From: Peptococcia bacterium
Lineage (GTDB): Bacteria > Bacillota > Peptococcia > DRI-13 > DTU073
NCBI GenBank assembly: GCA_050951565.1
Contig: JBMNJH010000012.1
Span: 63,141 to 127,140, forward strand
Length of the DNA stretch: 64,000 nucleotides
Direction of reading: 5' to 3'
Below the pieces are notes generated by a model. The model had not been told where the DNA came from, did no database searches, and worked only from the letters and a program-made list of their open reading frames with translations. A program made the translations under genes and the position numbers. Positions 53,290 through 57,528 of this stretch are shown piece by piece; positions within the stretch are counted from its first letter, which is position 1, and the number at the start of each line of letters is the position of its first letter.

Positions 53290-54066
53290 GTGAAGTTGGA
53301 TATTTTTCTTGCTGTCATCATCGTAATCCTGCTCATGAACAGCTTCTTGTTCCTGGTTTTTAAAAGGATCGCGGTGAATGTGGGCAAGCATGCGCAGAAT
53401 TACGTGGTGCGGCAGCTCTCGGCATACGATGACCTGATTAAGAAAAAAGCACAAAAACTGCATGAATTAAATGAAGCCATCAATAACGAACAAGCCCAGA
53501 TGGCGAAGGAGCCTGTCCAAGTCAAGGAAAGCGTTCCGAAACCGATTAATCCCTTTGCTTTTTTGCCCGGAAATTATCTGGACACCAGTTTTTTAGGCAA
53601 CTATCGCAAGGTGCGGGAGTTTTTCCACTTTGATCATCGACTATGTATTAAAAATGTGCTTGAACTGTACGACACCGAGCAAGAGGACATCAAGTCTTTA
53701 CTGAGCAGGCAGATTTTAGTCCGCTTTTCCCTGGAAAACCGCTTCGGCATTGCGACCATGGAGGAGCAAGACCAATTAGCAGTTTTTAAGGAAATGTTGA
53801 ATAACGAAGAACAAAGCCTTTTGGAGGAATATTGCGCTTCCCATCCCTCGTTTGATTGTATAAGCTTTTTTGACTGGCTGGAAGTAGTATCTTTTCGTTC
53901 TAATCCTGAGGTGGTGATCCGAACCGGCGAAAGCAAAGAAAACCTGACCTGGTTAAACGACCGGATTAGGATGGAGTACGACAGCAGTATTTGCGAAGGC
54001 ATTCAGGTTGTTTTGTGGAATAAGCTTTATGATTTTTCGATACAGAAAAGGGAGTTATGCGGATGA
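53290..54066 (+). CDS. Peripheral-stalk (b-like) protein: N-terminal TM helix plus long amphipathic/coiled-coil region
   Basis: TM IFLAVIIVILLMNSFLFLVF. Position between the c-like and alpha-like genes mirrors atpF. Alternative TTG start at 53296 has better RBS spacing. Confidence 0.55.
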   Translation: MKLDIFLAVIIVILLMNSFLFLVFKRIAVNVGKHAQNYVVRQLSAYDDLIKKKAQKLHELNEAINNEQAQMAKEPVQVKESVPKPINPFAFLPGNYLDTSFLGNYRKVREFFHFDHRLCIKNVLELYDTEQEDIKSLLSRQILVRFSLENRFGIATMEEQDQLAVFKEMLNNEEQSLLEEYCASHPSFDCISFFDWLEVVSFRSNPEVVIRTGESKENLTWLNDRIRMEYDSSICEGIQVVLWNKLYDFSIQKRELCG

Positions 54067-55388
54067 ACGAACATTTAAATGATGTTATTCAGAAAAAAAT
54101 CGATACAATCAAACAGAAGAAAAACATTTACGAGTTGGGCCTTGTGACCAATGTCCATGACTATATCCTCGAAGTAAGTGGCCTGGAAAACGCGGCCTTT
54201 TTCGAGCACGTGGTGATTGGCGACAAGGCCGAAGGCTATGTCAACAATATCGGACGTAATACGGTGACCGTAGTGCTGGCCAAAAGAAACGCTCCGGTTT
54301 TTGTGGGCGACAAGGTGGCTGCGACCGGCGAGCAGTTTTGCGCTTTCTATTCCCCCGACTCCATCGGCCGGATTGTGGACATGTTTGGTCAGGATGTGAT
54401 GCGGGACCAGTTTTTCAGCAACCGGGAAAAAATCCCCATTGAAACGCCCCCGATCCCGATTATGGACCGGACCAGTGTGAATCGTCCCCTTTATACGGGG
54501 ATTACGGGGATTGATTTGCTTTATCCCATTGGGAAAGGGCAGCGTCAGTTGATTATCGGCGATAAGAAAACCGGGAAGACGCAAATCGCCCTTGATGCCA
54601 TCGTCAATCAACGACAGGACGAAGTGCTGTGTATCTATATTGCCATCGGAAAAACTAAAAAAGAAGTCAAAGAGGTTTACAGCGAGTTGCTTTCCCATGG
54701 GGCGATGGAGTACACGATTATTCTGGCGGCCTTCCAGGATGAATGTGCCCCGGTCTTGTGCAACACGCCCAGTGTGGGGGTTACCATTGCCGAGCATTAT
54801 ATGCTGCAAGGGATGGATGTGCTGGTGGTGATTGACGATTTGAAACAGCATGCCGACAATTACCGGGAAATCAGCCTGCTTTCCGGAAGAGTGCCTGGCC
54901 GGGACGCTTATCCGGCGGATATCTTTTTCGCCCATGCCAGTTTGCTGGAAAAAGGCTGCCAGCATAAGGACGGCGGTTCGATTACGATCCTACCGATTAC
55001 GGAAACGAAAGGCGGGGACATTACCGATTACATCTCCACCAACATTATTTCCATTACCGACGGGCAGATCGTGCTTTCCGCCAAAAACTTCGAAAAAGGG
55101 CAAAAACCGGCCATTAACTATGGCTTGTCCGTCTCCCGTTTAGGTGGCGCGGTGCAGACGAAAGAACTTAAGAAGTTAGGTTCCGTGGTGCGCCGGGAAC
55201 TGTTGTCTTATTTAGAATCACGGGCAGTTTTTGAACTGGCCAATACCGAAGAAATGAGCGAAGACTTGCGGCAGAAGATGGGAGTGGGCAGTGAAATCCT
55301 GAAGCGGATGAACCAGTACAAGTTTGAAGCCCGCGCGCCCGAAGAAATGGTCCAGCTCTTTCAAGAATTGGTGGTGGTTCCTGAATGA
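54057..55388 (+). CDS. F1-ATPase alpha-subunit paralog (443 aa, C-terminal domain shortened)
   Basis: GQRQLIIGDKKTGKT (alpha-type Walker A, canonical GDRQTGKT), Walker B VLVVIDDL, ISITDGQI, and Arg-finger context GLSVSRLGG (E. coli alphaR376 SVSRVGG). Start overlaps the upstream stop. Confidence 0.85.
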   Translation: MRMNEHLNDVIQKKIDTIKQKKNIYELGLVTNVHDYILEVSGLENAAFFEHVVIGDKAEGYVNNIGRNTVTVVLAKRNAPVFVGDKVAATGEQFCAFYSPDSIGRIVDMFGQDVMRDQFFSNREKIPIETPPIPIMDRTSVNRPLYTGITGIDLLYPIGKGQRQLIIGDKKTGKTQIALDAIVNQRQDEVLCIYIAIGKTKKEVKEVYSELLSHGAMEYTIILAAFQDECAPVLCNTPSVGVTIAEHYMLQGMDVLVVIDDLKQHADNYREISLLSGRVPGRDAYPADIFFAHASLLEKGCQHKDGGSITILPITETKGGDITDYISTNIISITDGQIVLSAKNFEKGQKPAINYGLSVSRLGGAVQTKELKKLGSVVRRELLSYLESRAVFELANTEEMSEDLRQKMGVGSEILKRMNQYKFEARAPEEMVQLFQELVVVPE

Positions 55389-56176
55389 ACATCAAGCTAG
55401 TCGTTAAGGCGATGAACTTTCATGCTTTGCTGCATGTGGAGTCCGCCCGTCGCAAAGCGAAAAAATACGCCTATTTGGAACAGGAAGTAAACGGACTGAT
55501 TGAGATGATTGTCAATAACCGGAATATTATCCTGGACAAACATCTTTTGAAGATCAATCCGAAAAGACCGGCCTTAAACATCTATATCGGTAGTGACCTG
55601 GGCTTTTGCGGCAACATTAACGCTCAAGTGGACAATCTCCTTTTGGCCGATGACGCTTCCGACAAGATTGTAATCGGCAAAAAACTACATACTAATCGTC
55701 CCAATGTTTTGCTGAGCATGACCAGGGAGATGTTTGACACTCATTATGCCCTGGTGGAAGAGCAACTGGAGAAGAGTATTTATGAGCTGAGGCACAGCAG
55801 CATCAACGTGATTTACAATCATTACTACAGCGCCAGCGATATCAATATCATAAAAAAACAAATCTTCCCTTTTCCCATTAAAAAACTGTCGGAAGACCAG
55901 TATACGGAAGATTTTGTGGTGGAGGGCAATATTCAGGACCTTTTGCTTAGTTTGATTGTATCCTACATTAATTATGAAGTGAAAATTGCGGCGGTGAATA
56001 GCTTCGCTTCGGAAAACATCATGCGTCAAAACGCCACCAACGAGTCCCTGAAAAAAATCGATGAATGGCAGGAAGAAGAATTGCGGGAACTGCGGAAAAT
56101 CCTTAAGCAAAAGACCTTTAAGAAGGTGCTGGAAAGCTATCTGAAAACGAAAAGGTTTGGAGGAAAAGACCGATGA
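55385..56176 (+). CDS. F1-ATPase gamma-subunit-like protein
   Basis: N-terminal helix [14 protein letters not shown]...RRKAKK, mid [11 protein letters not shown] (gamma: TDRGLCGGLN), C-terminal helix with [12 protein letters not shown] (gamma: EQAARMVAMKAAT). ATGA overlap with the alpha-like gene. Confidence 0.75.
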
Positions 56177-57528
56177 GGATAGGAAAAATCATCTCGATTT
56201 CCAATCTGCGGATTGATGTTTTGCTGGACAACCAGGAAATCAATAACCGGGATATCGTTTGGACGGAACACAATGAGCAGCACTATAGGTTTGAGATTGC
56301 CCAGATCGACGGCAGCGTTGCCATCGCGATTCCCCTCGGTCATGTTAACGGCCTGAAAAGGGGTCTGGATGTTTATCTGGAAGAGGGAGGGTTGCAGATT
56401 GAGTATTCGGACCAGATTTTAGGCCGGGTTTTCAACGCCTTCGGGGAACCGCTGGATAGGCAGCCGGTGGAATCAGCCTGCCGGAAGAATATTTACGAGA
56501 AAAACCTCCGGCTTTCCGAAATCGGGATTAATGGGGATATCCTCTGGACGGGAATCAAGGCCCTGGACTTTTTCGCCCCGATGCAGAAAGGCTTTAAGAT
56601 GGGCCTTTTGGGTGGCGCCGGGGTAGGCAAAACGGTTCTGATTAAGGAATTAATCAATAATGTTTACAAGGGCTTTGGCTCCAACTCGGTGTTCGTCGGG
56701 GTGGGCGAACGTTCCCGGGAAGGGAAGGAGCTTTTTGATGAAATGCTGGAAAGCGACCTGCTGGACAAGCTGTCCATCGCCTTCGGACAGATGGGGGAAA
56801 GCCCCATGGCCCGTTCCCGGGCCGTATTCGCCGGCCTGACTTTGGCGGAATACCTGCGGGATGAAAAGCAACAGGACGTGCTTTTGTTCATCGACAATAT
56901 TTACCGTATGGTGCAGGCCAACAGCGAAATTGTGTCCGAGATGGGGCAGATCCTCATTGATAATGGTTATCCGATTACCTTGCTCAGTGATGTCAGTGAA
57001 GTGGAGGAGCGGATTAATTCCACGGGAAACGGTTCCGTTACCTCTTTCCAGGCGATTTATATTCCTGCCGATGATTTGACGGATGCGGCCGTTAACGCCA
57101 TCCTTTCCCATTTGGACGGGCAGGTGGTGTTGGACCGGAAGGTGGCGGAGAAAGGCTTGTATCCGGCCGTTGACGTTTTCCATACCACCAGCAGTCTGAT
57201 TACCGTGGAAAAAGTCGGGCAGCGTCATTATTCGCTGGTGAATGAAACGATCCGGTATCTTTCCCAATACCAGGAATTAGAAAAAATCGTGGCCGTACTG
57301 GGAATTGAGGAGCTTTCGGAAGAAAACAAAAATGTTTTCTTCCGTTCCCGGAAACTGCGCAATTATTTCACTCAGCCCATGTTTGTTTCGGAACAGTATA
57401 CCGGAATCCCCGGGCAGTTTGTCCGGATTGAGGATGTCCTGGATGATGTGGAGGCGATTCTGTCCGGAAAATACGATGATAAGGACGAACGGTTCTTTGC
57501 TTACATCGGATCAATTCCTAAATCATAA
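56173..57528 (+). CDS. F1-ATPase beta-subunit paralog (451 aa)
   Basis: Walker [16 protein letters not shown], catalytic GERSREG, Walker [28 protein letters not shown], and a DELSEED-equivalent [12 protein letters not shown] overlap with the gamma-like gene. Confidence 0.88.

Follow-up and report, generated by a model that had tools for sequence, protein, structure and literature searches.

A conserved gene cassette of F-type ATPase descent in Clostridia, without subunit a and linked to giant surface proteins

What kind of machine do the F1-type alpha, gamma and beta genes (here alpha', gamma' and beta') of this locus encode, when the genes around them only partly resemble an ATP synthase operon? 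A preliminary description of the window (the whole 64-kb stretch of DNA that was analyzed) had drawn attention to the catalytic machinery of alpha' and beta', which it took for paralogs, but passed over the missing subunit a, the lack of a carboxylate in the c-like subunit (c') and the constant linkage to giant surface proteins. Our analysis indicates that alpha', gamma' and beta' are probably the catalytic core of a self-contained 11-gene operon of F-type ATPase descent, the elements of which are listed below.

45511..45539, + strand: promoter-like site TAGACA-17-TATAAT, 5' of the first cassette gene (11/12 matches in a consensus scan)
45647..51100, + strand: upstream giant surface protein (1817 aa), with Pfam Collagen (1.4e-8) and fn3 matches
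51127..52923, + strand: ~600-aa single-pass surface protein, no Pfam or NCBIfam match
53033..53278, + strand: c' (81 aa), Pfam ATP-synt_C 3.9e-8, without ion-binding carboxylate
53290..54066, + strand: b-delta-like peripheral stalk protein (258 aa)
54057..55388, + strand: alpha' (443 aa), F1 alpha-type non-catalytic subunit, N-terminus intact, last ~60 C-terminal residues absent
55385..56176, + strand: gamma' (263 aa), Pfam ATP-synt E 1.1e-22, ATGA overlap with both neighbours
56173..57528, + strand: beta' (451 aa), catalytic subunit at full length, in which Walker A, GERSREG, Walker B and a DELSEED-like loop are intact
57562..57903, + strand: epsilon' (113 aa), N-terminal beta-sandwich only, without the C-terminal helical hairpin
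57878..58462, + strand: five-transmembrane-helix (5-TM) membrane protein (194 aa), no family match, no canonical atp gene at that place
58485..59213, + strand: ~240-aa single-pass protein with a conserved extracellular C-terminal domain, no family match
59228..64000, + strand: downstream giant surface protein, first ORF 59228-62488 (1086 aa), followed by homologous pieces in other frames to the window end

The order of these 11 genes, from the upstream giant and the ~600-aa protein through c', stalk, alpha', gamma', beta' and epsilon' to the 5-TM protein, the ~240-aa protein and the downstream giant, is constant in 96 of 96 related loci, with zero violations. The full c'-to-epsilon' core is present in 65 of these loci, 57 of which also contain the flanking surface genes. 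The genes bordering the cassette vary with context (purL, beta-lactamase, SpoU, ABC transporter), and the cassette is therefore an independent unit. Bioreactor, rumen and human-gut samples supplied the Clostridia that carry it, and it is widespread in this class, including human-gut species; it is apparently new to the literature, in which we found no earlier description. The promoter-like site is the top consensus-scan match of the region and constitutes weak evidence. The ATGA start/stop overlaps joining the alpha', gamma' and beta' genes, together with ribosome-binding sites, indicate co-translation.

The matches of alpha' and beta' to Pfam ATP-synt_ab are far beyond chance (E 3e-73 and E 3e-62, respectively). 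The three ORFs lie at the positions given in the preliminary description, and all the catalytic motifs quoted there were recovered, both in alpha' (GDKKTGKT, aa 168-175; SVSRLGG, aa 358-364) and in beta' (GGAGVGKT, aa 147-154; GERSREG, aa 178-184; Walker B [11 protein letters not shown], aa 235-245; IEELSEEN, aa 378-385), and they are invariant across 46-57 distinct homologues. The Walker A and B motifs, the catalytic Glu and the Arg finger are all present, as canonical F1Fo requires. The shortened C-terminal domains that had been ascribed to both subunits hold for alpha' but not for beta'. The alignment of alpha' to Bacillus PS3 alpha runs from residue 5 to about 417-440, leaving out roughly the last 60 residues, or about three helices of the C-terminal domain, and this truncation is a family trait, with relatives spanning 437-452 aa versus about 498-513 aa for most canonical alphas. 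The length of beta' falls instead in the canonical range (449-472 aa in its family, 459-474 aa in canonical betas), and its alignment to canonical 460-473-aa betas covers the full length of the protein, extending as far as residue 453 of 462 for the best bacterial match. The gamma' protein is about 25 aa shorter than canonical gamma. In F1, the N-terminal segment of alpha binds delta, and a segment of this delta-binding type is kept in alpha'.

The size of alpha' does not reflect lineage variation, a possibility that the preliminary description had left standing. Canonical Lachnospiraceae alphas are about 500 aa long and score 759-844 bits with TIGR00962, versus 395 for alpha' (cutoff 484), which also scores below the cutoff of PRK13343 (427 vs. 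554). Moreover, alpha' defines a separate clade (NJ bootstrap 50/50) with at most 44% identity to any canonical alpha, whereas canonical alphas are at least 51% identical to each other across phyla. The view that these genes are not decaying pseudogene duplicates was borne out by codon-based dN/dS values of 0.016-0.12 for alpha', beta' and gamma', revealing strong purifying selection. Between two cassette loci (L098 and L097, dS about 0.7), dN/dS is 0.022 for alpha', 0.016 for beta', 0.035 for gamma' and 0.042 for epsilon', and c' shows 0 non-synonymous versus 18 synonymous differences.

The membrane portion of the cassette departs more markedly from an ATP synthase. Subunit a is absent from all 96 cassette loci: the canonical a HMM matched 74 canonical loci and no cassette locus, and the canonical b, delta and epsilon HMMs likewise matched none of the cassette loci. 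The c' protein conserves the cytoplasmic loop RNPETK, but neither of its membrane helices contains an ionisable residue, and Asp and Glu are missing from TM2, and from the final 33 residues, in all 35 distinct members, where 45 of 45 canonical c subunits have one or two. Because it has no subunit a and its c' lacks the membrane carboxylate, the cassette, as judged from its encoded proteins, cannot serve as an ATP synthase driven by protons or sodium. A peripheral stalk is present as one b-delta-like protein, with moderate statistics, comprising an N-terminal TM helix continued by a long helix, a linker, a delta/OSCP-like helical bundle and a small beta domain; mycobacterial b-delta chains appear among its fold matches, and the protein is cassette-specific, forming 535 clusters at 50% identity. 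The epsilon' subunit is only weakly detectable (hhalign E 3e-3 against the canonical epsilon profile, no Pfam match), although its alignment is collinear at the beta-sandwich and places YNLLIMEDYMP opposite the canonical GILPGH-type motif. The median ORF of its family is about 95 aa, versus 136 aa for canonical epsilon, and the inhibitory C-terminal helices are absent. The rotor that had been proposed from gamma' and epsilon' remains plausible: with gamma', the epsilon' beta-sandwich, c' and the b-delta-like stalk all encoded, both a rotor and a stator can plausibly be assembled.

Beyond these subunits, the cassette always encodes the 5-TM protein, along with four proteins that cross the membrane once and have large extracellular parts; two of the four are giants, and two bear length-matched collagen-like segments. 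The giants range from 1800 to over 4000 aa and are always adjacent to the ATPase genes. The upstream giant, whose position is constant in 8 contexts and in metagenome loci, consists of an N-terminal membrane anchor, a membrane-proximal domain, a Gly-X-Y collagen-like run of 18 triplets at about residue 270, and fn3/Ig-like repeats. The ~600-aa protein has a comparable layout, with an N-terminal anchor, a giant-like domain, a (GGX)n/Gly-X-Y run at about residue 244 and an acidic tail; the N-terminal domains of the two proteins are homologous (hhalign probability 81%, E 1e-5), and the lengths of their Gly-X-Y runs co-vary across loci (r 0.85-0.96). The position of the ~240-aa protein is conserved in 65 loci. 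The 5-TM protein, which some relatives carry as a fusion with an extracellular domain, belongs to a poorly conserved family (26% mean column identity) with no invariant Arg and no detectable similarity to subunit a (hhalign probability 0.4%), and its AF2 model is unreliable (pLDDT 53). All surface proteins carry ordinary N-terminal signal-anchor helices, which suggests insertion via Sec/YidC. In the downstream giant, tblastn matches with 2000-2300-aa orthologues run past the stop codon in frames +1, +1 and +1, and an independent contig (L001) shows the same frame-broken gene; since it is frameshifted here, this component may be dispensable or variable. A Peptidase_M26_N/GLUG match was observed in the downstream giants of two relatives.

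The composition of the cassette is probably best read as that of an ATP-hydrolysing rotary or mechanical device working on the co-encoded surface proteins. Predicted ATP hydrolysis would turn a gamma'-epsilon'-c'-ring against a proposed stator composed of alpha'3beta'3 and the b-delta-like protein, probably joined by the 5-TM protein. Because the cassette has no ion path, the work would be passed to the surface proteins, with torque or conformational work crossing the membrane and adhesive fibres being moved, tensioned or reset as candidate outputs. We infer both rotation and surface coupling from gene linkage and from the parts that have been lost. The principle would be analogous to that of the mycoplasma Type 2 gliding motor and Type 3 F1-like X0 ATPase, which provide a precedent for F1-like ATPases acting on surface machinery (PMC3369863, PMC11864180, PMC12994834). 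More tentatively, and with considerable doubt, the cassette may specify a new bacterial surface rotary machine, in which an F1-like motor with an ion-free c-ring would crank or rotate a heterotrimeric, collagen-stalked giant fibre, the membrane anchors of the fibre being carried by the ring or by surrounding membrane proteins. If true, this could bear on how Clostridia move over surfaces, attach to plant fibre or mucus and let go of it, or interact with a host, and would represent an independent counterpart of the mycoplasma F1-like motors in wall-bearing cells.

Several other explanations were weighed against this reading. The cassette could be the ordinary, perhaps the only, F1Fo ATP synthase of the organism, with its differences representing lineage variation. 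Its c, stalk, alpha, gamma, beta, epsilon order mirrors atpE-(F/H)-A-G-D-C, the public annotation reads "F0F1 ATP synthase subunit alpha", beta' nearly reaches the NCBIfam atpD equivalog cutoff (459.8 vs. 462.85) and a canonical operon was not seen within the window. This explanation is nevertheless very improbable, given the absence of subunit a (0/96 loci) and of the c' carboxylate (0/35), the equivalog scores of 395 (alpha') and 460 (beta') versus 759-856 bits for canonical alpha and beta subunits from Lachnospiraceae and other phyla, the distinct clade and low identity of alpha', and the constant inclusion of giant surface proteins in a cassette that occupies differing chromosomal places. 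Even less credible is the decay of a duplicated atp operon toward pseudogenisation. The losses of subunit a, the c carboxylate and the C-terminal helices of alpha and epsilon would fit such a process, as would the frameshifted downstream giant in this organism, but they are set against dN/dS values of 0.02-0.1 across alpha', beta', gamma', c' and epsilon', invariant catalytic motifs, the intact ORFs and shared synteny of 65 full-core loci from many lineages, and the 535 clusters of the stalk protein. The selection and conservation data refute decay as far as sequence can.

An accessory, N-ATPase-like ion pump, with the 5-TM protein as a very divergent subunit a and an unconventional ion site, would account for the polytopic membrane protein always found in the operon and for the semi-conserved Asn and Glu near its TM4, and N-ATPases do show that a second F-type ATPase can move laterally (PMC2881411). 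We regard it as quite unlikely, since the c' helices have no ionisable residue, the 5-TM family shows neither an invariant Arg nor profile similarity to a, neither the N-ATPase gene order nor AtpQ/AtpR is present, the alt_F1F0 scores lie far under their cutoffs, and such a pump would not explain why giant surface proteins are obligatorily linked to it. A FliI-FliJ-like assembly or export engine that inserts, unfolds or secretes the giants, rather than moving them, is less remote but still unlikely. The common ancestry of F1 and FliI/FliJ, the matches of alpha' and beta' to FliI/SctN models (E 1e-50 to 1e-62) and the cargo-like giants invariably adjoining the ATPase argue in its favor; the heterohexameric alpha/beta type of the complex, which includes a c ring and a delta-like stalk and is no FliI-type homohexamer, the absence of FlhA/FlhB/FliPQR-like export-gate homologues from the cassette and the ordinary signal anchors of its surface proteins argue against it.

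The device acting on surface proteins that we favor invites comparison with known F1-derived systems, among which the mycoplasma Type 2/3 F1-like ATPases are analogues of the cassette, which itself falls outside both types. The Type 3 F1-like X0 ATPase (MSC_0618/0619; MMCAP2_0575-0581) is needed for MIB-MIP antibody cleavage (PMC3369863, PMC12994834) and comprises seven genes, encoding a 12-TM protein, a small cytoplasmic protein, gamma, epsilon, a large protein with two C-terminal TM helices, alpha and beta (PMC12994834). Both systems consist of extra alpha/beta/gamma/epsilon-like genes with intact catalytic motifs and no subunit a, and share their operon with membrane proteins that belong to no known family and with large surface proteins, on which ATP hydrolysis is proposed to do work. 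However, Type 3 has no c subunit, peripheral stalk or alpha N-terminal helix, whereas the cassette keeps all three, retains the canonical gene order and has other partners. Against the Type 3 models, alpha' scores 304 (MSC_0619, cutoff 520) and beta' 403 (MSC_0618, cutoff 570), canonical subunits outscore both, and no MIB or MIP family match was detected in the cassette, the sole echo of MIB-MIP being the Peptidase_M26_N/GLUG match in downstream giants of two relatives. The Type 2 G1-ATPase of Mycoplasma mobile constitutes the "twin motor" of gliding (PMC11864180, PMC8406192), which has an alpha3beta3-gamma makeup derived from F1 and is believed to rotate and drive surface "legs". Homology to G1 alpha and beta in the PDB is clear (9io5_D, E 5e-83; 9io5_A, E 5e-92), but G1 has no c ring or stalk, its beta bears a large PGK-binding N-terminal extension and it forms dimers and chains with GliD/GliE. 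The Type 2 models return scores below cutoff (glide_MMOB1660, 382 vs. 600; glide_MMOB1670, 385 vs. 850), and beta' covers only positions 260-683 of the Type 2 beta profile.

N-ATPases (atpDCQRBEFAG) accompany the main ATPase of scattered lineages as an additional F-type gene set that moves laterally (PMC2881411); they keep subunit a, an ion-binding c and AtpQ/AtpR in a different gene order, and pump ions. The alt_F1F0 models score alpha, beta and gamma at 342, 419 and 26 bits (cutoffs 750, 752 and 282). The best FliI/SctN scores (177-210 bits) likewise fall below their cutoffs (380-620), and the cassette has distinct alpha and beta genes and no gate genes. The ProAD survey listed, with no description given, 20 candidate F/N-ATPases with c subunits lacking the essential Glu/Asp (PMC11738941). 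It counted only sets with alpha, beta, gamma, a and c, by which rule the a-less cassette would have passed for an incomplete set, and drew no link between such c subunits and surface proteins (PMC11738941). The cassette shares with canonical F1Fo the order of its c, stalk, alpha, gamma, beta and epsilon genes, all catalytic residues and the R-x-P-E loop of c, while its fusion of a delta-like bundle to a b-like helix resembles mycobacterial b-delta, and its 5-TM protein and four surface proteins are additions to the canonical set.

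The segment at 54057-57528 consists of three closely packed plus-strand genes encoding alpha', gamma' and beta', homologues of F-type ATPase subunits that form part of an 11-gene cassette. Neighbouring genes in it share ATGA overlaps or lie a short spacer apart, with a ribosome-binding site in between, and the cassette is laid out as follows:

45647-51100, upstream giant protein, 1817 aa
51127-52923, 598-aa protein
53033-53278, c', 81 aa
53290-54066, 258-aa protein (putative b-delta-like stalk)
54057-55388, plus strand, alpha', 443 aa (Pfam ATP-synt_ab, E 3e-73)
55385-56176, plus strand, gamma', 263 aa (Pfam ATP-synt gamma, 1e-22)
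56173-57528, plus strand, beta', 451 aa (Pfam ATP-synt_ab, E 3e-62)
57562-57903, putative epsilon', 113 aa
57878-58462, five-transmembrane (5-TM) protein, 194 aa
58485-59213, 242-aa protein
from 59228, downstream giant protein

The catalytic motifs quoted in the preliminary description were all located at their expected sites, with GDKKTGKT and SVSRLGG in alpha', and GGAGVGKT, GERSREG, the Walker B motif and IEELSEEN in beta'. That description also proposed shortened C-terminal domains for both subunits, which holds for alpha' only, because beta' aligns end to end with canonical betas of 460-473 aa. Alignment of alpha' with the structurally solved Bacillus PS3 alpha extends from residue 5 to approximately residue 417 of 502 (E 4e-95), and relative to canonical alphas it lacks ~60 residues at its C-terminal end, corresponding to about three helices of the C-terminal domain. 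The N-terminal segment of alpha', which in F1 binds delta, is retained and partly invariant.

The best 120 database relatives of alpha' (62-100% identity, 432-458 aa) derive from Lachnospiraceae (strain MD1, Herbinix, Mobilitalea), Oscillospiraceae, Family XIII, Peptococcia and Coriobacteriales-labelled MAGs. Among 46-57 distinct sequences of related loci, none departs from the Walker A motifs, GERSREG or the Arg-finger context, and lengths are 437-452 aa for alpha' (~498-513 aa for most canonical alphas) and 449-472 aa for beta' (459-474 aa for canonical betas). Nei-Gojobori analysis of one pair with unsaturated dS (~0.7) yielded dN/dS values of 0.022 for alpha', 0.016 for beta', 0.035 for gamma' and 0.042 for epsilon', with c' showing 0 non-synonymous and 18 synonymous differences and the accessory proteins ranging from 0.13 to 0.22; in a second pair, core values were 0.07-0.12. 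The invariant catalytic motifs and low core dN/dS (0.016-0.12) agree with the earlier view that these genes are not decaying pseudogene duplicates and, at the level of sequence, identify alpha', beta' and gamma' as a conserved family.

It had been recognized beforehand that the size differences might simply reflect lineage variation among ordinary F1 genes. In a neighbor-joining tree, however, alpha' forms its own clade (50/50 bootstraps), with at most 44% identity to any of 63 canonical alphas, whereas canonical alphas from Bacillota, Cyanobacteria, Acidobacteriota, Fusobacteria and Patescibacteria share at least 51% identity with one another. On the NCBIfam equivalog models, alpha' (395 bits) and beta' (460 bits) both score under the cutoff, while canonical alpha and beta subunits, including two from Lachnospiraceae, reach 759-856 bits, and these results together speak against lineage variation. 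A specific kinship with the mycoplasma gliding G1-ATPase (Type 2) or the mycoplasma F1-like X0 ATPase associated with MIB-MIP (Type 3) was also considered and rejected: alpha' and beta' fall below the cutoffs of the Type 2, Type 3 and N-ATPase models and score lower than canonical subunits on the mycoplasma models, and therefore represent a separate lineage. A scan of genome contigs with the alpha' family alignment, whose peptide patterns also match canonical alpha, returned 80 loci among the matches listed, all of them canonical atp operons from other species with 38-44% identity; these loci then provided the canonical controls and the profiles. The remainder of the 64-kb window contains no other atp or ntp genes and is ordinary chromosome. 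We infer that the cassette is an F1-like ATPase repurposed for surface machinery.

The same cassette order was identified in eight other genomic contexts with differing flanking genes (purL in the window; beta-lactamase, SpoU or an ABC transporter elsewhere) and in 80 loci from metagenomes of bioreactors, the rumen and the human gut. The whole core from c' to epsilon' is present in 65 of 96 loci and 57 also carry the surface-protein genes, and no violation of the order was detected in any of the 96. Homologue searches in a word-indexed database recovered only 7 proteins for the 5-TM protein and 15 for the stalk, since both evolve fast; the true spread became apparent in an exhaustive search of 1.84 billion representatives, in which the 258-aa protein matched 535 clusters at 50% identity, 408 of them with E 1e-10 or better. 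Among the carriers are Lachnospiraceae, Oscillospiraceae, Family XIII and further Clostridia, sampled from digesters, the rumen and the human gut. No members of the alpha' family were found on plasmids and no relatives on viral contigs, and PADLOC gave no match. The exact 5-TM protein of the window occurs on 85 contigs, including the NCBI entry 'MAG TPA: Clostridia bacterium' (locus tag GX395_07955), and the organism therefore recurs across many metagenome assemblies. One related locus, L001 (JGI Ga0534105_00418, 284.5 kb), is 99.6-100% identical to the window, but its giant genes are not identical.

The c' protein forms a normal hairpin with a strictly conserved cytoplasmic loop, RNPETK; in F-ATPases, the cytoplasmic loop of c contacts gamma and epsilon. 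Within the last 33 residues, Asp or Glu is found in none of 35 distinct c' sequences but occurs once or twice in each of 45 canonical c sequences. A canonical subunit a HMM matches 74 canonical loci and no cassette locus. The 258-aa protein aligns with the canonical delta profile (hhalign probability 76%, E 2e-5), including the delta C-terminal motif (canonical D..LIGG....D.S, cassette D..ICEG....LYD.S). Its AF2 model (pLDDT 76) comprises a transmembrane segment and long helix, a linker, a helical bundle and a small beta domain, and the Foldseek PDB list for this model is dominated by ATP synthase delta, OSCP and b-delta chains to approximately rank 35 (best probability 0.96). With statistics of moderate strength, sequence and model point to a b-delta-like stalk. 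Profile searches of PDB sequences with the stalk and 5-TM proteins gave no significant match, the M. tuberculosis b-delta chain appearing only at E 0.66. The 113-aa protein shows a weak but collinear match to the epsilon N-terminal beta-sandwich and is, on moderate to weak statistics, a probable epsilon'; it lacks the inhibitory C-terminal hairpin, with a family ORF median of ~95 aa versus 136 aa for canonical epsilon. The 5-TM protein bears no detectable resemblance to subunit a (hhalign probability 0.4%) and has no invariant Arg. A candidate a-like Arg motif, [RK]x3-4[DE]xxN, seen in the first eight 5-TM sequences, failed in a 30-sequence alignment, and a 5-TM AF2 model (7-sequence alignment, pLDDT 53) was judged unusable.

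As judged from these comparisons, the alpha/beta/gamma core is intact and under selection, with gamma', epsilon' and c' as rotor-type parts and the b-delta-like protein as a stator-type part. The cassette has kept the c-ring and peripheral stalk, but precisely what ion coupling requires is gone, since it has neither an ion-binding site nor subunit a, and its linkage to surface proteins is obligatory.

In both giants and in the ~600-aa and ~240-aa proteins, a positively charged N-terminus precedes a single hydrophobic helix, for which the positive-inside rule predicts an N-in, C-out topology. The upstream giant matches Pfam Collagen, contains fn3-like repeats, and shares with the ~600-aa protein a homologous membrane-proximal domain (hhalign probability 81%) and a Gly-X-Y run at equal distance from the membrane anchor. 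The lengths of these runs in the giant and the ~600-aa protein, respectively, are 18/20 in the window and 33/35, 25/26, 36/37, 28/29, 16/17 and 13/13 in other loci; they co-vary over related loci L087-L175 (Pearson r 0.85-0.96, with significance inflated by relatedness), and in a human-gut subgroup the runs are missing from both proteins. The simplest reading is that a single collagen-like triple helix contains both proteins, which would make the stalk heterotrimeric.

The downstream giant ends after 1086 aa, and homology to its 2000-2300-aa orthologues continues through frames +1, +1 and +1 within 62488-64000, with frame changes near 62490, 62700-62790 and 63230. A matching frameshift pattern in the independent JGI contig L001 (18270-21332) points to real frameshifts rather than assembly error, reflecting pseudogenisation or possibly phase variation. 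A human-gut downstream giant (L160, 13890-20771) matches Peptidase_M26_N, the N-terminal region of IgA1-specific metalloprotease, over the Pfam cutoff (aa 1673-1776, E 4e-7), which faintly recalls how the mycoplasma Type 3 ATPase is tied to Ig-cleaving MIB-MIP. Another downstream giant (L140, 12800-19870) contains a GLUG motif (aa 1574-1596), and the window has a homologous GGIVGRNE stretch at 62752-63258 without a Pfam match; no protease catalytic domain was seen. In several relatives (L087, L091 and L098; ~405 aa), the 5-TM protein is fused via an extra transmembrane helix to an extracellular domain resembling that of the ~240-aa protein, and an additional 450-490-aa protein is encoded; two assemblies, L089 and L090, have the same alpha' but differ in this part. 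The cassette therefore combines a constant ATPase core with an extracellular half whose structure varies.

In the mechanism we propose, the complex would hydrolyse ATP, as its sequence suggests, and a hydrolysis-only enzyme fits the loss of the epsilon inhibitory helices. The c'-ring would be turned or strained against the stalk, and the work would be passed to the surface proteins, where it must go because there is no ion path. A candidate route across the membrane leads by way of the 5-TM protein together with the extracellular domain that is fused to it or acts as its partner; alternatively, the work could cross via ring-associated anchors. A similar working principle has been proposed for the mycoplasma Type 2 and Type 3 systems (PMC11864180, PMC12994834), but the cassette falls outside both types when tested for membership and would represent a more complete intermediate, still endowed with c-ring and peripheral stalk.

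Full-text literature searches found F1-like ATPases described in mycoplasmas only and gave no description of this cassette; the use of such enzymes for anything but energy conversion is to date known from that group alone, of whose F1-like ATPases the cassette would be a widespread equivalent elsewhere. The ProAD survey lists 20 F/N-ATPases with c subunits lacking Glu/Asp, left undescribed there, and counts only gene sets containing subunit a (PMC11738941). The cassette raises the questions of how rewiring can let a rotary ATPase perform mechanical work on the other side of a membrane, what job a carboxylate-free c-ring performs and what purpose giant collagen-stalked proteins serve in Gram-positive anaerobes, all directly testable in cultured carriers (Lachnospiraceae bacterium MD1, Herbinix). 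Cassette genes are publicly annotated as 'F0F1 ATP synthase subunit alpha/beta', with alpha' family members named 'F0F1 ATP synthase subunit alpha' or 'F-type H+-transporting ATPase subunit alpha', so that an ATP synthase can be inferred by mistake when metabolism is reconstructed from MAGs.

Elsewhere in the window, three genes with Cu_amine_oxidN1 ('copper amine oxidase N-terminal', stalk-like) domains cluster with a gene for a 971-aa PQQ/beta-propeller protein (9543-10256, 10437-11240, 12810-13799 and 13760-16675), the cluster being interrupted by a minus-strand DUF234/ATPase_2 gene (11347-12768). In a 567-aa ORF (1020-2723), a match to the first ~300 positions of the Prismane/hybrid-cluster-protein profile occurs together with a C-terminal TipAS antibiotic-recognition domain; this unusual pairing could reflect either a genuine fusion or two genes called as a single ORF.
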